From contig JBGQGY010000029.1 in assembly GCA_041497675.1 (NCBI GenBank), forward strand, positions 1 to 32,225: a DNA stretch of 32,225 bases, given 5' to 3'. This stretch comes from a bacterium (lineage in GTDB: Bacteria > Sysuimicrobiota > Sysuimicrobiia > Sysuimicrobiales > Humicultoraceae). The position numbers and the translations under genes were made by a program. Below, piece by piece: positions 9,272 to 24,881 of the stretch. Position 1 is the stretch's first letter. Each line of letters begins with the position of its first letter. The notes below the pieces were generated by a model that did no database searches, had not been told where the DNA came from, and was given only the letters and a program-made list of their open reading frames with translations.

Positions 9272-11280
9272 TGCCGGTCGATCCCGTTTTTCTCGAGATC
9301 TTCAAGAATCGTATCCAGGCAATCAGCGAGGAGATGGCCAGCGTCGTGCTCCGAACGGGGTTTACGGTGTTCGTCAAGGAGACCGCCGATTTCGGCACCT
9401 TCCTCCTCACCCCCAAAGGCGAGACGTTTGGCTCACCCGCCGTCACCGGCGTGAACCTCTCGCTGGGGATGCCGGGCGAAGACACGATTGCCGCTTTCGG
9501 CGAATGGCACGAGGGCGACATCGTCATGACGAACGATCCCTTCACGACCGGTGGCATGTCCACCCATTTGGCCGACGTCTTCCTCATGCGACCGGTCTTT
9601 GCGCAGGGGCGCCTCATCGCGTTTGGGCTGGCCTTTATCCACTCGTCCGACGTCGGCGGCAAGGTGCCGGGAAGCATTACGCCCACGGCGTACGACATCT
9701 ATCAGGAAGGCGTGCGCATCACGCCCGTCAAGCTGTACGAGCGGGGCGTGCTGAACGAGACGGTGCTGCGTCTCTTCTTGGACAACTGCCGGATCCCCGA
9801 ACAGAACTGGGGCGACCTGAAGGCCCTCATGGCCGGGCTCAACGTCGGCGCGCGCCGGCTAAACGAACTGGCGGACCGCTATGGAGTCGAGCAGGTCGAA
9901 ACCGGTATCGAGGCGCTACTGGCGTACGCCGAGTACCAAGTCCGCGCGATGATCCGCGAGATCCCCGACGGCGAGTACACCTTCTGGGACTATCTGGAAA
10001 GCGGCCCCGGAGGGTATCCGATCCGGCTGCGCTGCCGGCTGGCCGTCAGCGGCGACGAAATCCTCATGGATTTCGAGGGCACCGATCCGCAGGTGCGCGC
10101 CGCGTTCAATCTCCCGTCGTGCAACAAGCAGGGGCATTACATGCTGGTGCCGACGCTGGTGCGGTACTTCCGCACGCTCGACCCGGCGATCCCGTGGAAT
10201 TCCGGGATGGTGCGGATGATCGCCAGCCACGCCCCGGCGGGCAGCCTGCTCAACCCGTACCCGCCGGCGGCGGTGGGTGTCCGCGCCGCCACGTTCATCC
10301 GAGTGATGGATGTGGTCCTGGGGGCGTTGGGTCAGGCGCAACCGGACCGTCTGCCCGCCGCGGGCGCCGGACAAGCGTGTATCGTGCTGCTCTCGATGAT
10401 CGACGCGCAGAGCGGTCGGCATCGCGTCGGTGTGGTGCAGCCGATCTGCGGAGGCTCGGGCGGGCGGCCGATGCGGGACGGGATCGACGGCATGGACTTC
10501 TCCGTCGGGTATCTGCGCAACGTCCCCGCGGAGACGCTCGAGACCGACATGCCGGTCCTGATCGAGCGCTACGGCCTGCGCCCGGACTCGGGCGGCCCCG
10601 GCGTATTCCGCGGTGGCTGCGGGATCGAACTCACTGTGCGGGTCTTTGCGCCCGACACCGTACTGACCGCGCGAGGCATGGAGCGGTTGCAGTTCCAGCC
10701 GTGGGGACGCGCGGGCGGGCGGCCCGGGGCGCAGGGGACGGCGATCACCAACATCGAGACGCCCGACGCGACGCCGACGGGACGCATCGACGAACTGCTG
10801 CTGCAACCCGGCGACACCATCACGTTCCTGTCGCAGGGCGGCGGAGGGTTTGGGGATCCGTACGCTCGTGATCCTTCGGCGGTGTTGTCCGATGTCCGCC
10901 GCGGGCTCGTCACGGCCGGGGCCGCCCGTGAAGCGTACGGCGTCGCGCTCTCGGATGACCATGTCGACGTTGAGGCGACGCGCGCGCTACGGGCGGCGGA
11001 GCGCGGATCCGGCGCGGCGTTCGACTTCGGGCCAGAGCGGGAGCGCTTTGAGACCATCTGGACCGACGCCATGCAACTGTCGCTCAACCGCGCGCTCGGC
11101 GCGCATCCCCTGGCCTTGCGAAACTACCTCAAACAGCGCGCCATGCAGGAGGTCGAACGCCGGGCTGCCGCCGGTGGGCGCCCGGAGCCAACGACGCTCT
11201 CGGACCTTGTGCGGGAGATCGCCGACGGGATCGCGGCCGGGCGCCGGGCCGAGCGCCCCTTTGGACAGGTGGGCGGCTAG
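9271..11280 (+). CDS. Hydantoinase B / oxoprolinase family subunit
   Basis: TAATG overlap with subunit A; NDPF.GG.STHLAD, HSSDVGG, DSGGPGVFRGG, GGGGFGDP. Confidence 0.95.
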   Translation: MPVDPVFLEIFKNRIQAISEEMASVVLRTGFTVFVKETADFGTFLLTPKGETFGSPAVTGVNLSLGMPGEDTIAAFGEWHEGDIVMTNDPFTTGGMSTHLADVFLMRPVFAQGRLIAFGLAFIHSSDVGGKVPGSITPTAYDIYQEGVRITPVKLYERGVLNETVLRLFLDNCRIPEQNWGDLKALMAGLNVGARRLNELADRYGVEQVETGIEALLAYAEYQVRAMIREIPDGEYTFWDYLESGPGGYPIRLRCRLAVSGDEILMDFEGTDPQVRAAFNLPSCNKQGHYMLVPTLVRYFRTLDPAIPWNSGMVRMIASHAPAGSLLNPYPPAAVGVRAATFIRVMDVVLGALGQAQPDRLPAAGAGQACIVLLSMIDAQSGRHRVGVVQPICGGSGGRPMRDGIDGMDFSVGYLRNVPAETLETDMPVLIERYGLRPDSGGPGVFRGGCGIELTVRVFAPDTVLTARGMERLQFQPWGRAGGRPGAQGTAITNIETPDATPTGRIDELLLQPGDTITFLSQGGGGFGDPYARDPSAVLSDVRRGLVTAGAAREAYGVALSDDHVDVEATRALRAAERGSGAAFDFGPERERFETIWTDAMQLSLNRALGAHPLALRNYLKQRAMQEVERRAAAGGRPEPTTLSDLVREIADGIAAGRRAERPFGQVGG

Positions 11281-11750
11281 CGGGCGGGGTCTGCGGGCTG
11301 GCGCTCCCGGGCCATGAACTCGTCGATATCGGCGCGGTAGCGGGCCGTGCGGGCGTTGAAGTCTGTGATGTTCGCCTGAAGAGACTCAATGCGGTGGTTG
11401 TATACCATCACGTCGAACTGATCGTCCGCGGCGGGCGCGGGTGGCATCCCGTCGGGAAATTGCTGGCGCCGCCGTGTGATGTTGTCGCGCAACGCCGCGA
11501 GTTCTCGTTTCTCTCTCTGGAGGGTCTCGCGCCCGCGCTCGAGATCCTCGCCGACCGCCATCAACTCGGCGCGGCGACGACGCACGTCCTCAGGTTCCCC
11601 CGGCCGCGGCGCCGAGATCCGCACGGGCGAACCCTCCGCCTGATCCGGTGCGCCGCGGATGTTGAGCCGGCCCAAGACCACCGACCAGGCCATGACGCCG
11701 ACTGCGAAGACGACGACCACGATGAGGTAGACTGCCACCCGGCTCCGCAT
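11277..11750 (-). CDS. Hypothetical protein with N-terminal membrane anchor and coiled-coil
   Basis: Hydrophobic N-terminal helix, charged heptad-rich region; last gene of the upp-fusion run. Confidence 0.65.
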   Translation of the reverse strand: MRSRVAVYLIVVVVFAVGVMAWSVVLGRLNIRGAPDQAEGSPVRISAPRPGEPEDVRRRRAELMAVGEDLERGRETLQREKRELAALRDNITRRRQQFPDGMPPAPAADDQFDVMVYNHRIESLQANITDFNARTARYRADIDEFMARERQPADPAR

Positions 11751-11793
11751 GTCATTGAGGTGTATGCCCTGATCGGGCCCTCAGCGGACGTGG

Positions 11794-13530
11794 TCATGCG
11801 GTCGCCGGCGCGCGGGTGGCGCGAGGGCTGTCGCGGCCCGCAGTCTGAACTTCGAACCCGAGCTCCGTCGCGCGTGACACGAAGAAGTCGATATTCTCGG
11901 TCTTGGTCCGGTCGCCAATACTGGCGCGGTCATAACACCCGTCGATGGCCAGGACCACCGTCTCGGCCAGACACGCCGGCACGAGCCCCGGCCCGTAGCC
12001 CATGTCCAGCTGGCCCCGTGGATCGCCGGGCAGCCGCACCACCCCGCCGGGAATCACCTCGACGTCTTCACGCGCGACCACCGAGATGTCGACGTCGTAG
12101 GGCCGGCCGAGGTCAAAGATCACGGCGCCGCTGCGGACGTGCTGAGGGAAGATGACCGGCGCGGGTTCCGACGTGGCGGTGAAAACCGCGTCGGCCTCGC
12201 GCGCCGTGTTGAGATCGACGCTCACGTCGATGACGACGCTGCGATACCGCCGCTGCAGCAACTCGCGCGACCGTTCGAGGCGTTCCAGACTCGTCCCGAT
12301 CATGATCAGCCGCCCGACGTGCTCGACGACCGCGCGGCAGATGCCGAATCCCACCACGCCGTTGGCGCCCACGACAGCGGCCGCCGCCCGCGACGGATCG
12401 ACGCCGCGCGCCCGCAGCCGCGCCAGGACCAGCGGCACGGCCATCTTCACGGTGCCCGCTGTATACGCGCCGCCGTTGGTGACCGCGATGGGTGACCGCG
12501 CGGCGACGTCGACGCCTTTGTTGCCGACCACCGACCAGTACGCGCCCAGCCCCAGCACGGTCGCGCCCAGATTCGCCGCCAGGTGCGCCGCTTGAAGCGC
12601 GCGGCGCACCGCGAGCGCCGGTTCGGTCCGGATCTGATCGGGCAGCAGCGGCACGGCGATCAAATAGAGGCGCGCGCGCCGGCCATCGCGGGTCGTGATG
12701 TTGCGCAGTTCGTCCACCTTCATGGGCCGCATGAATCGGGCCAGCCACCGCACGGCGCGGTCCGAGATCAATCCCCGCTGCTGCAGGGGGCCCAGCCAGC
12801 GAAACCGGTTCGCCTCCCACACGTCACGGACGGTCATGGGGTGAATGAGAAACGCGGCCACCGCCTCCCCGCCATCGAGCCACGGCAGCGGGAGCCGGTC
12901 GCCGATTCGAGGCTCGACGCCATCGGCGATCCGGGCAAGGTGTTCCTTATAGTTCCACAGCGTGACGATGGCATACGCGGCGCCGAGCGCGAGAAAGGCC
13001 GTGTGCGCGCCGGTCAGCCACAGCGTCACCGGCAGGCTCACGGCGGCCAGCACCGTCGCCAGCGACAGATAGCCCCACGCCCGCCCCAGCGCGCGCGGCA
13101 CGACCAGCGTGGCCGCAGCGACGATCATCGGGATCGCCACGGCGGTCGGGGCGATGTCACCCAGCGCCGCCAGCGTCAGGACCGCCCCAAACGCGACAAC
13201 GGTGCTCTTCATGCGGCCGGCCGTCGATCGCACGATGAGCCAGACGGGAGAGTACGCGTGACCGAGGATGACGGCGGCGGCGGACGCGGCCAGCGGCCAG
13301 GCCGACGCGTCGAGCGTGCGGGCCGCGAGGACGCCGAGCGCGCCCTTCGCCAGGTCGAGCCCAACGACGAGCCCGAGCGTGGGATAGCCGACGGCCGCGA
13401 TCACGGCGCCCAACCCAAGGTTGTGCGGGGATAGACGCCGGATGTCGAGACCGCGCATCTGCCGCGCCACGAGATAGCCGGTCGGCAGAGCGCCGATCGC
13501 GGCGGCCAGCAGCACGGCGAACACGACCAT
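11794..13530 (-). CDS. Fusion of a PlsY-like (G3P acyltransferase fold) membrane domain and an acyl-ACP-reductase-like NAD(P)-dependent dehydrogenase (COG5322-like)
   Basis: N-terminal multi-TM domain with DLAKG, LGHAYS, GVEPRIG; C-terminal AFLIHP, GLGAYWSVV, TNGGAYT, VVGANGVVG (Rossmann), DLGRPYDV, ACLAE; ATG 4 nt after upp stop. Confidence 0.82.
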   Translation of the reverse strand: MVVFAVLLAAAIGALPTGYLVARQMRGLDIRRLSPHNLGLGAVIAAVGYPTLGLVVGLDLAKGALGVLAARTLDASAWPLAASAAAVILGHAYSPVWLIVRSTAGRMKSTVVAFGAVLTLAALGDIAPTAVAIPMIVAAATLVVPRALGRAWGYLSLATVLAAVSLPVTLWLTGAHTAFLALGAAYAIVTLWNYKEHLARIADGVEPRIGDRLPLPWLDGGEAVAAFLIHPMTVRDVWEANRFRWLGPLQQRGLISDRAVRWLARFMRPMKVDELRNITTRDGRRARLYLIAVPLLPDQIRTEPALAVRRALQAAHLAANLGATVLGLGAYWSVVGNKGVDVAARSPIAVTNGGAYTAGTVKMAVPLVLARLRARGVDPSRAAAAVVGANGVVGFGICRAVVEHVGRLIMIGTSLERLERSRELLQRRYRSVVIDVSVDLNTAREADAVFTATSEPAPVIFPQHVRSGAVIFDLGRPYDVDISVVAREDVEVIPGGVVRLPGDPRGQLDMGYGPGLVPACLAETVVLAIDGCYDRASIGDRTKTENIDFFVSRATELGFEVQTAGRDSPRATRAPATA

Positions 13531-13534
13531 CGTC

Positions 13535-14164
13535 TTACTTTGTCCCAAACAGCCGGTCGCCGGCGTCGCCCAGCCCCGGCACGATGTAGCCCTTCTCGTT
13601 CAGATGACTGTCCACGGCGCCGGTGTAGATGTCGACGTCGGGATGGGCCGCGTGCACCTTCTTGATGCCCTCTGGGGCCGAGATGATGGCCATGACCTTG
13701 ACGGTGCGGCAGCCGCGCCCCTTCAACGTGTCGATGGCCGCGACGGTCGAACCGCCGGTCGCCAGCATCGGGTCGAGGATTATGGTCTGACGATCGGCGA
13801 TATCCGGCGGCAGTTTCACGAAGTAACTGACGGGCTGCAGCGTTTCGTGATCGCGATAGATGCCAATGTGCCCGACGCGCGCCGTGGGGATCAGCCGCGT
13901 GATGGCCTCCTCCATCGCGAGCCCGGCCCTGAGAATGGGGACGACCGCGATCTCCTGCCCGGCGATCGTCCAGCCCGTGGTCGTCGCCAGCGGCGTCTCG
14001 ACCTGAATCTCGCGGACCGGATGATGCCGCGTCGCCTCATAGGCCATCAACATGCTGAGCTCTTGGGTGATTTCCCGGAACTCTTTGTGCCCGGTCCGCT
14101 TGTCGCGCAGGATCGTCAGTTTGTGCCGGATCAGCGGGTGATCGAAGACGTGCACGTTGGGCAT
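13535..14164 (-). CDS. upp: Uracil phosphoribosyltransferase
   Basis: [41 protein letters not shown]. Confidence 0.97.
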
Positions 14165-19256: not shown

Positions 19257-20387
19257 ATGGCCGGCTATGACCTACTGGTACGCGGGGCGCACGTGATCGA
19301 CCCGACGCAGAATCTGAACCGGGCGGCAGACATCGCAGTGACGAACGGTCGCCTCGCCCGCATCGGTCCACCCGGCGGGGGCACGGCGTCACGCGTCATT
19401 GACGCGGCCGGGCTCTACGCGTCGCCGGGGTGGATCGACATCCACGCGCACGTCTTCCACAGCGCCGGCGGCAACGGGGTACATCCGGACCGCGAGGCCG
19501 GCGTGATGACCGGGGTCACGACCGTGGTCGATCCCGGGTCGCCGGGCGCGAGCCAGTGGGATGGTTTTCGCGCGTATACCGTCGAGACGGCCGCCACGCG
19601 GGTCCTCGCGTTCCTCAATGTCTCCATCGCGAGCGCGATGCCCGGCGTCCCCCGGCACGGCGCGTGGGACAACTTCAACCAGCGACTCACGATCCGCACG
19701 ATCGACGCCCACCGCGATGTCATCCTGGGGGTGAAGGTCCTCGCATCGCAAACGCACTGCGGGCTGATGGGTGTGGAGCCCGTGAAACTGGCCGTGCAGG
19801 CCGCGGATCTCACCGGCACGAAGGTGATGTGCCACATCGGCAACGCGCCGCCGGTCATCCAGGACGTGCTCAGACTGCTGCGGCCGGGCGACGTTGTCAC
19901 GCATTGCTGGCACGGCAAGCCCGGTGGGATCCTGGACCGCGACGGGCAGCCGATTCGCGAGGCCCGCGCAGCGGCGGAACGCGGCGTGGTCTTCGACATC
20001 GGACACGGCAACGCCAGTTTCGCCTTCGAGACTGCGCGCCAAGCGATGAGCGCCGGGTTCCCCCTTCACTCGATCTCGACCGACATCCACCAGTTGTGCA
20101 TCCGCGGCCCGGTCTTCGATATGGCCACGACGATGTCCAAGTTCTTACACCTGGGGATGGGTCTCAGCGAGGTCATCCGGCTCTCGACATCGGGCCCGGC
20201 GGCCGCGATCGGGAAGGGCGACGCCCTCGGCAGCCTACGGGTGGGCCGCGAGGCGGACCTCACGCTCTTCCGCGTCGAGGACGGCGAATTCCCAGTCATG
20301 GACGCGGAGCGAAAGACCGAGAAGGCCGCGCGCATGATCCGGCCCGTCTGGTGCATTCGCGCGGGGAACGTCTGCCTCCACCCGTGA
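19257..20387 (+). CDS. Amidohydrolase/deacetylase-family metallohydrolase (dihydroorotase-like, EF_0837 type)
   Basis: DIHAH, GVTTVVD, GVKV, CHIG, THCWHG, DIGHG, ISTDIH metal-ligand motifs. Confidence 0.9.
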   Translation: MAGYDLLVRGAHVIDPTQNLNRAADIAVTNGRLARIGPPGGGTASRVIDAAGLYASPGWIDIHAHVFHSAGGNGVHPDREAGVMTGVTTVVDPGSPGASQWDGFRAYTVETAATRVLAFLNVSIASAMPGVPRHGAWDNFNQRLTIRTIDAHRDVILGVKVLASQTHCGLMGVEPVKLAVQAADLTGTKVMCHIGNAPPVIQDVLRLLRPGDVVTHCWHGKPGGILDRDGQPIREARAAAERGVVFDIGHGNASFAFETARQAMSAGFPLHSISTDIHQLCIRGPVFDMATTMSKFLHLGMGLSEVIRLSTSGPAAAIGKGDALGSLRVGREADLTLFRVEDGEFPVMDAERKTEKAARMIRPVWCIRAGNVCLHP

Positions 20388-21571
20388 CCGCAACGGTCCT
20401 CGGCATCGATCTCGGCTCGACGTGGTGCAAAGCGGGCCTCTATGAACGGACAGGCCGGCTTACGGCGACCGGCCGATCGGACAGCCGCACGGGAACGCTG
20501 GGTCTGGGCGCCTCGGATGCTGATCTCGAGCACTGGTGGCATTCCCTCGCCACGGCGGTTCGAGCCCTTCCGCCGCCGGTGCGCCCCGCCGCGCTGGCGG
20601 TGTCCTGCCGTGGATACTACGGCGTGTTCCTCGACGGCGCGATGCGCTCGGCCATGCCGTTCAGCGTCCCGCAGATTCCCCGCGACCTCTCCCCGTACGC
20701 GTCGGCCGGATGGGAACCCGGCGGGCTCTGGGCGCGCGCGTACGCGCCAATTATCGTGGCGAATGTCCGCTGGGTGCTCGAATCTCTTCCCGACGTCCAC
20801 GCCCGCATTCGACACGCGGGCGCGCTGCACAACTACATCGCCTGGCGCCTGACCGGACGCTGGGTCACCGACCCGGCCAGCGGACCGGGCGGGCTTGCCG
20901 ATTGGCCGCCCGCGGCGATGTCGCTCTCGGGTCTCGCGCGCGAGGCCTTCGCGCACCCACTGCCGTCCGAAGCCACCATCGGATCCCTCATCACGCAGGC
21001 CGCTTCGGATCTGGGTGTGGCGGGCGGCATGCCCGTCGCGTGCGGCGGCCACGACGGCGCGCTGGCGAACCTGGGTGGAGGCGCGTATCACATCGGTGAC
21101 GCCATGATCACGTTGGGGACCAACACCGTATTGCGTATCGTGACCGGCTCGCCGGTGGACGGCTGGTTCGGCTACCCCCTCCCACCGGGGATCTGGGCCT
21201 GGGTTCGCGGAGCACCGGGCACCGCGCCCAAAGTCGAAGCGGCGCGGGAGCGTGGCCGCCGGGCGTACGGCGCCGCGCTCGACGCGGTGGCGGCAGCGGT
21301 GCAGAATCTCATGGAGACCGCGCGCAGCGCGGGCCTCTCGCCGCGGCGGTTCCTGGTGACCGGCGGGCTGTCACTCATTCCCGCGATGCGGCGCCGGCTG
21401 AGATCGGTCCTCGGCCAACCGCCGATCTGGACCGACCCCGAATCGGGCATGCGCGGCGCGGGGATGCTGGCCGCCGTCTCCGCCGGATGGTACCGGGATG
21501 TCTCATCGGCGGCCGAAGGGATGCGCTATCATCATCGACGAGTACGAGGTGCCCACAATGTACACGTATGA
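20384..21571 (+). CDS. FGGY-family carbohydrate kinase (short C-terminal domain)
   Basis: GTGA overlap with upstream stop; GIDLGST..K, GGHDG, TLGT, VTGG, GAGMLA. Confidence 0.85.
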   Translation: MTATVLGIDLGSTWCKAGLYERTGRLTATGRSDSRTGTLGLGASDADLEHWWHSLATAVRALPPPVRPAALAVSCRGYYGVFLDGAMRSAMPFSVPQIPRDLSPYASAGWEPGGLWARAYAPIIVANVRWVLESLPDVHARIRHAGALHNYIAWRLTGRWVTDPASGPGGLADWPPAAMSLSGLAREAFAHPLPSEATIGSLITQAASDLGVAGGMPVACGGHDGALANLGGGAYHIGDAMITLGTNTVLRIVTGSPVDGWFGYPLPPGIWAWVRGAPGTAPKVEAARERGRRAYGAALDAVAAAVQNLMETARSAGLSPRRFLVTGGLSLIPAMRRRLRSVLGQPPIWTDPESGMRGAGMLAAVSAGWYRDVSSAAEGMRYHHRRVRGAHNVHV

Positions 21572-22752: not shown

Positions 22753-23517
22753 ATGGAGATAGGTCCGGAAGTCATCGACCTGCGCACCGCGCGCGACGAG
22801 TCGCTCCTCGATCATCTCTATCAAGCGGTGTACCTTCCTAACTTTCAAACCCCCGAGCAACAAGAGGACCCTTCCATCTGGAAGCCGCTCCTCTGGGGTC
22901 CAGTGCCGCTGCCCCCCAAGCCGATCCTCCACATTCTGGTCGCGGGTCAGCACGTCCGCGCACAGGAACGCCGGATCCTCTATGGGTTTCTCATCCTGGA
23001 GTTCTTCAGAAGCAGCGCATGCGGGCTTCTCACCTACCTCGCGGTTGATCAGAACGCGCGCCGTCGAGGGGTGGCGAGGCTCTTGCTCGCCAAAGCGATC
23101 GAGCAGCTCAAGGTCGACGCAAGAGCCCAAGGAACGGAACTACGAGCGGTCTTTGCGGAGGTCAACGATCCCGCGTTGGTCTCCGAGTCCGAAGGAGCGA
23201 TCACGCCGGCGGAGCGCGTGAAGATTTTTGCGAGGCTGGGGGCGCGTCAGGTGCCCGTGCGATACGTCCAGCCCCAGCTCAAACCGGGTCGGGGGCGATC
23301 GGGCACGCTCCTGCTCATAGCGCTTCCCATCGAATCCCGCCCGCCCGAGGTGCTGGACTCACGGACCGTTCGGGCGTTCCTTCGCGAGTTCTACCAGTCG
23401 CTTGGGGTCGATCCCGCACGTGATCCCGATTTCACGAGGATGATCGCGGACCTTCCCGACGGAGCGTTGATCCTGCACGTACCTGGGTCGGTACCCGACC
23501 ACGCGCCGAACTCGTGA
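22753..23517 (+). CDS. GNAT-family N-acetyltransferase with C-terminal extension
   Basis: Acetyl-CoA-binding motif A LTYLAVDQNARRRGVARLL; AEVNDP; YVQPQL. Confidence 0.8.
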   Translation: MEIGPEVIDLRTARDESLLDHLYQAVYLPNFQTPEQQEDPSIWKPLLWGPVPLPPKPILHILVAGQHVRAQERRILYGFLILEFFRSSACGLLTYLAVDQNARRRGVARLLLAKAIEQLKVDARAQGTELRAVFAEVNDPALVSESEGAITPAERVKIFARLGARQVPVRYVQPQLKPGRGRSGTLLLIALPIESRPPEVLDSRTVRAFLREFYQSLGVDPARDPDFTRMIADLPDGALILHVPGSVPDHAPNS

Positions 23518-24881
23518 CCCCGCACGAGCATCACATTCAGGAACACCCGGTCCTGTCCTTCGAACGGTACGGGGTCGCGTTCCACTTCGTCGACAGGACG
23601 CCCGGCCCGCCGGACCGGATCCGGTCGTCGCCGGAATTCAGCTCGTTCGAACGCGACCTGGTCTCGTACGCGTACCGCGAGGAGCCGCCGTTTGGCACGC
23701 GTATCCTCCCGGTCCCCGACGCGATACGACACGTCGAGATCCAGTATCCGGCCGAGCTCTCGTACGTGTCCGAGGGGCTGGAGATACGGCTGGTCTGCGC
23801 AGACGCCGATCCCGCGCGCGGACGGCGGCGCGCTGTGGACGTGCATGCGAGCCGGACAGACTTCCGCAGCGGGCTCTCAGTCTTCCATCTCGTCCTCTCC
23901 CCGGGCGCCGCCACCGACGCGGCGCGATTGAATGAATACGATCTGGTGAAACTGATCAAGCTGTGGGAAGGTGGAGAAGGGGTCGGCGTTGATTCGTCGC
24001 TGCGCATCGACCGCCGGGTCACGTTCTTGTCGAAGGACGGCGACCTCCTCACGATCGAGGACATGGCCGGACGCACGCTGGGTCTCCGAGACGCGCACAC
24101 GCGACAACCACGACTCGGGACGGTTCAGGTCATCACGGGAGATGCCGCGGCGCCGCCCGGGTCGGTCGATTGGAACACGGTCTGGCACGTGATCCGGGCC
24201 TTCAAATCGTCCTCGCCGGGCGATGCCTCTCCGGATGACCTCCACACCAACGCGGTCAAAGGCGTCGCAGGAGTCATGCAGGGGCTGCTGGATTTCGATC
24301 GGGTCGGGCCCAGCGAACTGAGCGACGTCTTCGGATCGGTGCACGTCGCCGACGGGCTCCTGATCGCCATCCACAAGGGCACGCTCGTCTCGATAGCCGC
24401 CTCGGACCGGGCGTTCGACGCAGCGCCCTTCGTCGGCATCAGTCCCTACCTCCTGGCTCCCGCGGCCGTCCTGGCGCACAATGAAGAATGTCTGCGGAAG
24501 GCCTCGGACGCCTCAGACGAGGCCGCGTCGACTACGCTGAGGGTGCTCGACGGCGCGCGCCGCACGATGCACCAGGGGTTGGACAGGGACCCGCTGCCCA
24601 ACATTTTCCACTATCCGACCGAGCGGATGATCTACACAGTGGGAGAGGAATCACGGGGGTTGCGGGATCAACAACTGGCGCTCAGAGGCAAACTCTCCGA
24701 GATCCGATCCGAACTCCAAGCGATCACCGAAAGACGAAGACGCACGGCAGAGGATGTCATGGGCGGTCTGCTCCTGATCCTGTCGGGGATCACGCTGAAG
24801 GACATGCTGCCGCTCTCGATCGTGCTCCCGGTGTTCTCGCTGGGAGCGATGGCGTATGTCTACTGGCGGCTGCGGACCTGA
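23514..24881 (+). CDS. Hypothetical protein: large soluble domain, long helix and two C-terminal TM helices (CorA-like topology, no GMN motif)
   Basis: 455 aa ORF coupled to the GNAT by GTGA overlap; C-terminal amphipathic helix, RRRR, two hydrophobic segments, basic tail. Confidence 0.7.
   Translation: MTPHEHHIQEHPVLSFERYGVAFHFVDRTPGPPDRIRSSPEFSSFERDLVSYAYREEPPFGTRILPVPDAIRHVEIQYPAELSYVSEGLEIRLVCADADPARGRRRAVDVHASRTDFRSGLSVFHLVLSPGAATDAARLNEYDLVKLIKLWEGGEGVGVDSSLRIDRRVTFLSKDGDLLTIEDMAGRTLGLRDAHTRQPRLGTVQVITGDAAAPPGSVDWNTVWHVIRAFKSSSPGDASPDDLHTNAVKGVAGVMQGLLDFDRVGPSELSDVFGSVHVADGLLIAIHKGTLVSIAASDRAFDAAPFVGISPYLLAPAAVLAHNEECLRKASDASDEAASTTLRVLDGARRTMHQGLDRDPLPNIFHYPTERMIYTVGEESRGLRDQQLALRGKLSEIRSELQAITERRRRTAEDVMGGLLLILSGITLKDMLPLSIVLPVFSLGAMAYVYWRLRT

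Follow-up and report, generated by a model that had tools for sequence, protein, structure and literature searches.

A 32,225-nucleotide stretch of DNA (contig JBGQGY010000029.1 of NCBI GenBank assembly GCA_041497675.1, positions 1 to 32,225 of the forward strand; hereafter the window), from a bacterium of the Humicultoraceae in the phylum CSP1-3/Sysuimicrobiota, encodes a protein of 578 residues in which a PlsY-like membrane domain is fused to a domain resembling acyl-ACP (acyl carrier protein) reductase (AAR). The gene (P0001; 11794..13530, minus strand, 578 codons plus stop) belongs to a real, conserved enzyme family of single origin with three clades, for which no published study was found. 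As to its function we favour, with a little less than even confidence, a reading in which acyl-ACP is reduced to a fatty aldehyde that is passed to the PlsY-derived membrane domain, resulting in a non-standard lipid. The original prediction, made from the sequence of the window alone, described a PlsY/AAR-like fusion with a rewritten PlsY active site and proposed that it channels a fatty aldehyde or alcohol into non-ester lipids; the observation is confirmed, and the functional interpretation is partly supported.

The open reading frame (ORF) runs on the minus strand from an ATG at 13530 to a stop codon at 11794-11796. An alternative in-frame TTG at 13548 would lengthen the protein by six residues; the nearest homologue also begins with MMVF..., matching the ATG form.

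A PlsY Fold with a Remodelled Substrate Pocket

The PlsY-fold membrane domain occupies residues 1-210 (12901..13530, minus strand), as delimited by PF02660, by Foldseek matches to 5XJ5-5XJ8, and by the helices in the structural model. PF02660 covers residues 11-201 (E 1.7e-17, 64.5 bits against a Pfam cut-off of 24.1), and the PlsY equivalog TIGR00023 scores 55.4 bits, short of its NCBIfam cut-off of 137.2. A phmmer search of solved structures matched Aquifex PlsY (5XJ5) at E 5e-9 with the full protein and 4e-10 with the N-terminal domain alone. The AlphaFold2 model, built on 121 relatives, has a mean predicted local distance difference test (pLDDT) score of 92.8 and a predicted template modelling (pTM) score of 0.90, and Foldseek aligned it to the PlsY structures 5XJ5-5XJ8 at E 2e-7 to 8e-7, with a template modelling (TM) score on the target of 0.76-0.82. 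The scaffold motifs D59..K62-G63, G90-H91, G153-Y-L-S156-L-A, and R200-I-A-D-G-V-E206-P-R-I-G are all present. Profile, structure comparison, and motifs thus agree with the PlsY scaffold originally read in the N-terminal ~210 residues, and the combination of AlphaFold and Foldseek suggested at that time recovers both the PlsY and the AAR fold.

Pocket positions were read from a HMMER alignment to 5XJ5 together with family alignments. In this alignment GSGNVGATNVTR of the Aquifex protein lies opposite SPHNLGLGAVIA of the window protein, G-GKGVAT opposite AGRMKSTVV, and HRENINR opposite YKEHLAR, the same pairings by which the three PlsY motifs had been said to diverge. In the motif 1 region (SPHNLGLGAVIAAVG, residues 34-48; 13387..13431, minus strand), Ser35, Gly36, Thr41, and Arg45 are replaced by Pro35, His, Gly41, and Ala45, while N37 and G39 are kept. 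The motif 2 or loop 3 region (AGRMKSTVV, residues 104-112; 13195..13221, minus strand) has Arg106, Met107, and Ser109 in place of Gly102, Gly103, and Gly105 and retains Lys104 as Lys108. The motif 3 region (YKEHLARI, residues 194-201; 12928..12951, minus strand) has Tyr194 for His177 and His197 for Asn180 and retains Arg183 as Arg200. Three further Aquifex residues, His92, Ser142, and Glu189, are kept as His91, Ser156, and Glu206.

According to the description of Aquifex PlsY in PMC5700162, Ser35, Arg45, Lys104, and Asn180 clamp the phosphate of glycerol-3-phosphate (G3P), Ser142 and His177 are ligands of its 2-OH, and the acyl-phosphate site consists of His92 and Thr41 together with the loop 3 backbone (residues 104-107), whose shape is maintained by Gly102, Gly103, and Gly105; the active site opens to the cytoplasm. 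Six of these substrate-binding positions are changed in the window protein (S35P, T41G, R45A, G102R, H177Y, and N180H). Its phosphate clamp reads Pro, Ala, Lys, His, with one of four residues kept; the 2-OH pair retains Ser156, with Tyr194 for His177; and in the acyl-phosphate site His91 is kept (as in 121/121 family members), Thr41 has become Gly, and the loop, which works through backbone amides, reads RMKS. The original prediction spoke of a replaced catalytic His. The replacement is there, but the adjective does not hold, as His177 is reported to position G3P via the 2-OH and not to serve as a catalytic base (PMC5700162). Table 2 of the same paper gives residual activities for Aquifex mutants of 4.8% (S35A), 4.8% (T41A), 1.1% (R45A), 0.03% (H177Y), and 0.95% (N180H). 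Because the window protein combines such low-activity states, the canonical PlsY reaction is not expected of it; judged by these residues, its PlsY-like domain is no ordinary G3P acyltransferase (GPAT).

An AAR-Like Domain with Conserved Catalytic Residues

A linker of 11 residues (DRLPLPWLDGG, residues 211-221; 12868..12900, minus strand), placed from the AlphaFold2 model and the sequence, leads to the AAR-like (COG5322) domain at residues 222-561 (11848..12867, minus strand), which was recognised through NF053554, TIGR04058, and 6JZU (phmmer and Foldseek). Its best family match is to the N-terminal part of PigE (NF053554, positions 45-333 of 837, E 1.3e-30), with 106.5 bits against a full-length cut-off of 850, and there is no PF00202 domain in the fusion protein. 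The AAR family TIGR04058 matches at E 8e-13 (48.4 bits against an NCBIfam cut-off of 449.7), and a weak Pfam NAD-binding match covers residues 381-493. Among solved structures, phmmer matched PigE (4PPM) at E 5.4e-17 and AAR (6JZQ/6JZU) at E 1e-12. Foldseek aligned the model to AAR 6JZU at E 4.9e-19 (TM score on the target 0.77, 22-24% identity) and to the carmabin TAD domain at E 2.6e-15 (16-17% identity).

The Rossmann glycine loop GANGVVG (residues 388-394; 12349..12369, minus strand) is the presumed NAD(P)H site. The motif ACLAE stands opposite ACFAE of AAR, so that Cys520 (codon 11971..11973, minus strand) is aligned with the catalytic Cys294 of AAR, the residue altered in the C294S entry 6JZZ. 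Motif, context, and fold therefore bear out the AAR likeness that had been read from the sequence. The equivalent of Cys520 is conserved in 121/121 family members and in 14/14 diverse AAR-like proteins, one of them PigE-like, and G388, A389, and G391 of the Rossmann loop are retained in the same two sets. All relatives for which an activity has been tested or proposed (AAR and PigE, PMC8341465; TAD, 10.1101/2024.10.28.620694) act on a thioester through the conserved Cys. From fold and conserved residues we infer a reductase step for this domain. It is a member of the AAR/COG5322 superfamily with intact catalytic residues, and neither an AAR equivalog nor a PigE.

A search of 1.84 billion representatives with only the C-terminal domain as query recovered 2353 proteins (E <= 1e-3), and domain architectures were annotated for 38 of the 150 relatives listed. 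Five of the 38 are PlsY + AAR-like fusions of a remote group, 27-30% identical overall, four of which keep GSGN, GGK, and H..N in their PlsY part; a PlsC-type acyltransferase is the partner in one, an SRPBCC lipid-binding domain in six (some with PilZ as well), and a class III aminotransferase, as in PigE, in five. Signalling domains occur on a few (PilZ in 3/38, GAF in 1/38), and many relatives are free-standing forms of 340-380 residues. To judge from these architectures, AAR-like domains recur in fusion with lipid- or aldehyde-handling partners, which supports a transfer of aldehyde within the fusion protein. Among the relatives, P0187 (584 residues), P0165/P0180/P0221/P0238, and P0201/P0268/P0220 are conserved-Cys AAR-like domains fused to PlsC-type, SRPBCC, and PilZ domains. 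About 30 listed AAR-like relatives of 626-827 residues have an N-terminal region of ~300 residues, in which none of the nine annotated has a Pfam match.

One Origin, Three Clades

Scoring of 8000 candidates yielded 465 full-length relatives of the fusion, 317-1012 residues long (E <= 1e-3). The 120 listed mostly measure 570-615 residues and come for the most part from metagenome-assembled genomes (MAGs) labelled Armatimonadota; their source names are 'glycerol-3-phosphate acyltransferase' or 'predicted amino acid dehydrogenase'. No longer fused form (1013-2890 residues) was found at E <= 1e-10, which is weak evidence. A protein atlas search gave the family's own clusters and nothing else, Deinococcota being the commonest taxon. 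In species genomes 115 stretches encode a fusion relative, of which 80 were kept as loci; 45 of these 80 carry the titles Deinococcus, Deinococcaceae, Deinococcales, Thermaceae, or Meiothermus, in keeping with the similar fusions in Deinococcus-Thermus that the original prediction mentioned. Other kept loci include Candidatus Fervidifonticultor and Thermofontivivens, the former placed in CSP1-3/Sysuimicrobiota by PMC11604079.

Motif tables of 79 and of 121 sequences divide the family into three clades. Clade A, from MAGs labelled Armatimonadota or Actinomycetota, has GSHNIGATNVLRVVG, F[AS]RGKAVAT, and HKEN[IL]GRL and keeps all six G3P ligands as well as Thr41. Clade B, from Deinococcus and Thermaceae, has NAHNLGVENVLRRVG, PPRGRGNLV, and FKENLGRM, with S35A, T41E, K104R, and H177F/Y. 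Clade C, from the window's phylum together with a small number of 'Bacillota' MAGs, has SPHNLGLG.V.A..G, ..R.KG, and HKEHL.RI, with S35P, T41G, R45A, and N180H; within it, H177Y is found in the window protein and its nearest kin. Common to the three clades are His or Tyr at Gly36 (119/121) and Arg at Gly102 (120/121), so that the fused PlsY of clade A also carries the family-specific G36H and G102R.

A maximum-likelihood tree of the PlsY domain was built from 77 rows (12 canonical PlsY, nine short PlsY-like paralogues, and 56 fusions, to which a 72% identity threshold had reduced the 121) and midpoint-rooted for drawing only. One branch separates all fusion domains (SH-aLRT 99), and within them clades B and C together are sister to clade A (SH-aLRT 97). 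The fusion arose once, from a PlsY with a canonical pocket. The remodelled pocket, as its distribution on the tree indicates, is a derived state of two clades, and the fusion started out as a working PlsY.

Nine positions of the membrane domain are fixed in 121/121 sequences (N37, G39, D59, K62, H91, K195, E196, R200, and E206), and R106 in 120/121. Mean pairwise identity rises from 45% in the N-terminal domain through 51% in the linker region to 62% in the C-terminal domain. The ratio of nonsynonymous to synonymous substitution rates (dN/dS, Nei-Gojobori) between the window gene and five relatives is 0.24-0.43 in the N-terminal and 0.09-0.26 in the C-terminal domain; the two closest pairs, in which dS is unsaturated, give 0.32 and 0.24 against 0.09 and 0.13. 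The membrane domain is clearly constrained, though more loosely than the reductase domain.

Two observations concern PlsY-like sequences beside the main line of the family. The fusions of genus g5 of the window's family (G017:C27 and G019:C30) carry the Thermaceae-type motifs SAYNLGLES... and YKENLGRI, unlike those of their own family; these motifs suggest either that the gene moved between Deinococcota and CSP1-3 or that the polymorphism is old. A short PlsY-like paralogue of ~205 residues, scoring 80-128 bits on PF02660, is present in CSP1-3 and Deinococcus (G019:C21:14172-14681, G097:C53:63056-63550, G030:C177:4471-4980, and G003:C1:1264737-1265222); it keeps the GGKG/GGQG loop and GH, and Ser35 and the entire H..N..R motif are gone.

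Lipid-Synthesis Genes in Fusion-Bearing Genomes

The window's genome (3.97 Mb, 98.6% complete) was searched with family profiles. Its one PF02660 match is the fusion gene, and PlsX (PF02504), DegV/FakB (PF02645), and the aldehyde deformylating oxygenase ADO (PF11266) have no match, so that the separate plsX and canonical plsY whose presence the original prediction wished to see checked are both missing. No PlsB-sized acyltransferase was found in this genome. One CdsA is encoded, together with two PlsC-type proteins of ~220 residues each, one of them downstream of cmk. Since ADO is absent, a fatty aldehyde made here would not be destined for alkanes. A reductase of acyl-phosphate, the product of PlsX, was also considered and dropped for this genome, which has no acyl-phosphate source.

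Across 94 species genomes of the window's phylum, PF02660 matches were classed by score and open-frame length. These counts take in two unpublished genomes (G022 and G029), and the genomes are related, so the counts are not independent events. A clear fusion is present in 26 genomes and fragments in three more. PlsX is missing from 16/29 fusion genomes (15/28 without G029) against 7/65 of the others. A canonical PlsY is absent from all 15 clear fusion genomes that lack PlsX, the fusion standing alone in 11 and accompanied by the short paralogue in four; where PlsX accompanies a clear fusion (11 genomes), eight also have a canonical PlsY. The same remodelled pocket is found in fusions from genera with and without PlsX and canonical PlsY. 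Among 34 genomes of the window's family (f1), 22 have two PlsC-type matches and six have three or four, and the count is mostly two in PlsX/PlsY-bearing and PlsX/PlsY-less genera alike. GpsA (PF07479, C-terminal domain), tried as a gauge of G3P supply, is found in 5/34 genomes of this family irrespective of PlsX/PlsY and so does not discriminate.

Eleven genomes of the phylum have PlsX and no PF02660 match, fused or free. Seven of these are at least 91% complete (G015, G021, G024, G047, G050, G059, and G060; PlsX at E ~1e-107 to 1e-117), a combination that points to some enzyme of CSP1-3, so far unrecognised, that uses acyl-phosphate or acts as a GPAT. Outside the phylum, the fusion is accompanied in each of three Deinococcus genomes by PlsX, a canonical PlsY (172-181 bits), and a short PlsY-like paralogue; because PlsX and canonical PlsY coexist with it there, the fusion has an extra and not a housekeeping function in those Deinococcus. 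In four clade A genomes the fusion is the only PF02660 match (147-153 bits), and PlsX is present in three of the four.

Proposed Function and Its Alternatives

In the reading we favour, Cys520 of the cytoplasmic C-terminal domain would take a fatty acyl thioester, most likely acyl-ACP, and the acyl-enzyme would then yield a fatty aldehyde by NAD(P)H-dependent reduction, as in AAR and PigE's N-terminal domain. The 11-residue linker would tie the reductase to the cytoplasmic end of the PlsY-derived seven-helix domain and, because it is so short and the junction is assumed to be on the cytoplasmic side, the reductase would have to cap the former PlsY site, releasing the insoluble aldehyde at or into the lipid groove and former active site. 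AAR and GluTR are described as passing their aldehyde to the next enzyme by a tunnel, and the same has been proposed for PigE (PMC8341465); it is because of these partner transfers, and by analogy with them, that the PlsY-like domain is taken as the receiver to which the aldehyde would be handed. Since canonical binding of G3P and acyl-phosphate appears to be lost and purifying selection nevertheless persists, the receiver may be a specialised one: it might catalyse the attachment of the aldehyde-derived chain to a polar acceptor, or it might form a gated passage into the membrane. The product would be an amine/amide-, ether-, or alcohol-linked chain for a non-standard lipid and not ordinary lysophosphatidic acid. 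The AlphaFold2 model, which predicts the two domains as one rigid unit (pTM 0.90, pLDDT 92.8), supports this arrangement.

Several observations weigh against a reductive side pathway of this kind. Gene order links the fusion to no downstream enzyme, be it an aminotransferase, an ether-forming enzyme, or another, and the PLD-like protein that adjoins it in Deinococcus (see below) went unmatched in the window's phylum (94 genomes, one query, E <= 1e-5). As plsX, canonical plsY, fakB, and a PlsB-sized enzyme are absent from the window's genome and cdsA and two plsC genes are present, the fusion is the obvious candidate for making the first lyso-lipid, and the concentration of plsX/plsY loss in fusion genomes fits membrane-lipid initiation no less well than a side pathway. 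The gene gaps fit either acyl transfer or a version of the aldehyde route whose product replaces lysophosphatidic acid. The fused PlsY of clade A, with its canonical ligand side chains, is the sole PlsY of its genomes and, because the PlsY of this basal clade is canonical, the reductase-like domain first evolved beside a working GPAT, for a reason that aldehyde handover does not explain. Work on TAD domains raises the possibility of non-reductive or redox-neutral acyl transfer by domains of the AAR fold.

These points lead to the alternative that we take most seriously while still judging it unlikely, namely that the fusion is a PlsX-independent lyso-lipid synthase. Cys520 would be loaded from acyl-ACP and the chain passed on without net reduction, by phosphorolysis to acyl-phosphate or by direct or redox-neutral transfer to an acceptor in the PlsY-like domain, and the fusion would stand in for PlsX and PlsY, its lyso-lipid being continued by PlsC and CdsA. 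The gene content of the window's genome (no plsX, canonical plsY, or DegV/FakB; cdsA and two plsC), the uneven loss of PlsX (16/29 against 7/65) with canonical PlsY in 0/15, and a PlsC-type count of mostly two in both kinds of genera, so that no extra acyltransferase was gained, all agree with this, as do the location of the gene in a housekeeping cluster, directly after upp in 17 loci, its probable origin with a working PlsY, and the non-reductive or redox-neutral transfer that the TAD authors propose on the AAR fold (10.1101/2024.10.28.620694). The pocket itself argues the other way, since clade C has lost the phosphate clamp and the ligand of the acyl-phosphate carbonyl (S35P, R45A, N180H, and T41G), and since the same pocket is found in genera that retain PlsX and PlsY it was not kept or adapted for G3P when these were lost. 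PlsX is moreover retained in 3/4 genomes of the basal clade despite an intact fusion pocket; a fusion of an AAR-like domain to a PlsC-type enzyme, which needs no acyl-phosphate, also exists; the cofactor loop, which a plain transacylase could do without, is conserved superfamily-wide; and the seven genomes with PlsX and no PF02660 match indicate that an unrecognised GPAT may serve the window's genome too. Less probable again is that the PlsY-like domain is noncatalytic and only tethers to the membrane a soluble-type fatty acyl reductase, whose aldehyde or alcohol diffuses into the bilayer and reaches unlinked enzymes, for example for wax or alcohol formation or lipid remodelling. The six changed substrate-binding positions, the faster evolution of the N-terminal domain, and the lack of a downstream enzyme linked by gene order would be expected of an anchor, but the fixation of N37, H91, R106, K195, E196, and R200 of the former active site in 120-121 of 121 sequences would not, nor would the His/Tyr at G36 (119/121) and the Arg at G102 (120/121), which are fixed and family-specific and not drifting. 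A dN/dS of 0.24-0.43 and a 210-residue seven-helix domain kept in register are likewise more than an anchor needs.

Two further explanations seem to us very improbable. The AAR-like domain could be a sensor or regulator, adjusting a membrane activity on binding acyl-ACP or NAD(P)(H) without itself turning over substrate; some AAR-like relatives are indeed joined to PilZ (3/38) or GAF (1/38), but the catalytic Cys is present in every sequence examined, and the membrane domain to be regulated lacks a canonical pocket. We give least credence of all to an ordinary PlsY with a noncatalytic accessory domain, as the public name 'glycerol-3-phosphate acyltransferase' would have it. That name, a PF02660 score above the cut-off, and the position of the fusion as sole PlsY-family gene of the window's genome speak for it; a TIGR00023 score of 55.4 bits where 137.2 are required, changes of the R45A, H177Y, and N180H type that leave ~1% activity or less in Aquifex PlsY, the absence of a known acyl-phosphate source from this genome, and an accessory domain that is the better conserved half of the protein speak against it. 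The aldehyde handover that we favour may also be extended into a bolder proposal, which we regard as improbable: in CSP1-3 genera without plsX and canonical plsY the fusion would commit acyl-ACP directly to an undescribed route for initiating membrane lipids, with reduction of the chain on Cys520 and attachment of the aldehyde to a polar backbone in the remodelled PlsY pocket, its ether-, vinyl-ether-, or amide-linked lyso-lipid being completed by PlsC and CdsA, and in the Deinococcus-Thermus sister clade it would supply the alkylamine-type chain of phosphoglycolipids.

Gene Neighbourhoods and the Deinococcus-Thermus Branch

The surroundings of the fusion gene in the window are housekeeping genes (glyA, upp, rpiB, a Sua5-like gene, prmC, prfA, and rho). 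The uracil phosphoribosyltransferase gene upp (13535..14164, minus strand) has its stop 4 nt upstream of the fusion ATG and adjoins the fusion on this side in 17 related loci; a comparison of neighbour genes between clades found none common across them. Downstream lies an ORF of 157 residues (11277-11750, minus strand) with one N-terminal hydrophobic helix and a charged, coiled-coil-like remainder; no Pfam family matches it, and the 80 loci contain a single homologue. In three RNA-type runs only 6-7% of the sampled words were present. When RNA-type contigs were compared with 11277-14164, the perfect or near-perfect ones fell on this ORF and on upp, a 244-base contig being identical to 11494-11737 within the ORF; the fusion gene was touched only by 24-53-base pieces of other organisms, which are uninformative on its transcription. 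Elsewhere in the window, two ORFs chosen as likely genes by a third-position G+C filter (23514-24881, plus strand, 455 residues; 20066-21091, minus strand, 341 residues) have no Pfam match at E <= 1e-5.

For clade B, an attractive guess is that the fusion supplies the alkylamine chain of the phosphoglycolipids of Deinococcus-Thermus, whose structure includes an N-glyceroyl-alkylamine. It is prompted by PigE, the closest characterised reductase, which feeds an aminotransferase. A transphosphatidylase is the kind of enzyme that a pathway to such lipids needs. Ten Deinococcus loci encode a PLD-superfamily protein of ~500 residues, with one PLDc_2 match and no NCBIfam family, 44-373 nt after the fusion and on the same strand, followed by ispH (L040:7694-9307, L053:7743-9227, L056:7761-9308, and seven further loci); in three more a glycerophosphodiesterase separates the two genes. 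This neighbour is possibly an operon partner in lipid head-group transfer. Because it is found in 0/94 genomes of the window's phylum, the alkylamine guess is not transferable to the window's clade. The phosphoglycolipids in question occur in Thermus and Deinococcus (PMC3398001, PMC9636437), and Table 1 of PMC13274423 reports N-glyceroyl alkylamines from Moorella thermoacetica. A search with the fusion of a 'Bacillota' MAG as query gave matches that carry MAG names only.

Comparison with Known Systems

With PlsY of Aquifex aeolicus (5XJ5-5XJ9) the fusion shares the seven-helix fold, the scaffold motifs, and the equivalents of His92, Lys104, Ser142, Arg183, and Glu189. It differs in S35P, T41G, R45A, G102R, G103M, H177Y, and N180H, in a score below the TIGR00023 cut-off, in its additional 340-residue C-terminal reductase-like domain, and in a genome without a PlsX or Fak supply of acyl-phosphate. 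By fold it belongs to the PlsY superfamily, but on its equivalog score and most of the defining substrate-binding residues it should not be filed as a PlsY. With AAR of Synechococcus elongatus (6JZQ/6JZU/6JZY) it shares the fold of the whole domain, the position of the Cys, and the Rossmann loop. The AAR family hands its aldehyde to a bound partner, a likeness that we assume for the fusion by analogy; however, AAR is soluble, whereas the domain of the fusion is covalently attached to a membrane domain, is 22-24% identical, and occurs in a genome without ADO.

PigE of the prodigiosin pathway (4PPM) shares the conserved Cys (GCMAE) and is described in PMC8341465 as a reductase fused to an aldehyde-using enzyme. 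Its partner is a class III aminotransferase and its substrate a short branched thioester, whereas the fusion has a PlsY-like partner and no aminotransferase fused or adjacent. TAD of the carmabin pathway (9E4S/9E56) has an AAR-type fold with an invariant Cys beside bound NAD (10.1101/2024.10.28.620694); it belongs to nonribosomal peptide synthetase/polyketide synthase lines and is 16-17% identical to the fusion. For its amide formation the same preprint proposes attack on the acyl-enzyme or a redox-neutral sequence of reduction, addition, and reoxidation, a proposal that is itself unproven. Closest in logic comes ElbD from Myxococcus xanthus, in which reductase-type and glycerolipid acyltransferase-type domains are joined in one protein. 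ElbD is reported to be required for alkyl and vinyl ether lipids, and the aldehyde to appear only with ElbD present (PMC9131029). It differs in being soluble and in consisting of unrelated FAR1-like, acyl-CoA synthetase, ACP, and AGPAT-like domains, and the likeness is confined to logic.

Implications for the Membranes of CSP1-3 and Deinococcota

A literature search on PlsY/AAR-like fusions found no paper, and the main text of two CSP1-3 papers makes no mention of lipids, PlsX, or PlsY. The literature searched also yielded no gene for the alkylamine and long-chain diol lipids of Deinococcus and Thermus. As the same family occurs in these two genera, which are easily grown and knocked out, the question of its function is directly testable.

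The database name is probably wrong for the two remodelled clades of the three, and a wrong label of 'glycerol-3-phosphate acyltransferase' hides a missing step in metabolic reconstructions of CSP1-3/Sysuimicrobiota. PlsX, PlsY, and PlsC are regarded as the near-universal bacterial route to phosphatidic acid. Genera that have only a PlsY-derived domain joined to a putative thioester reductase would possess either an unknown start of membrane-lipid synthesis or an unknown class of reduced-chain lipids. If initiation does proceed via an aldehyde, the membranes of these uncultured bacteria would rest on a first linkage that is not an ester.

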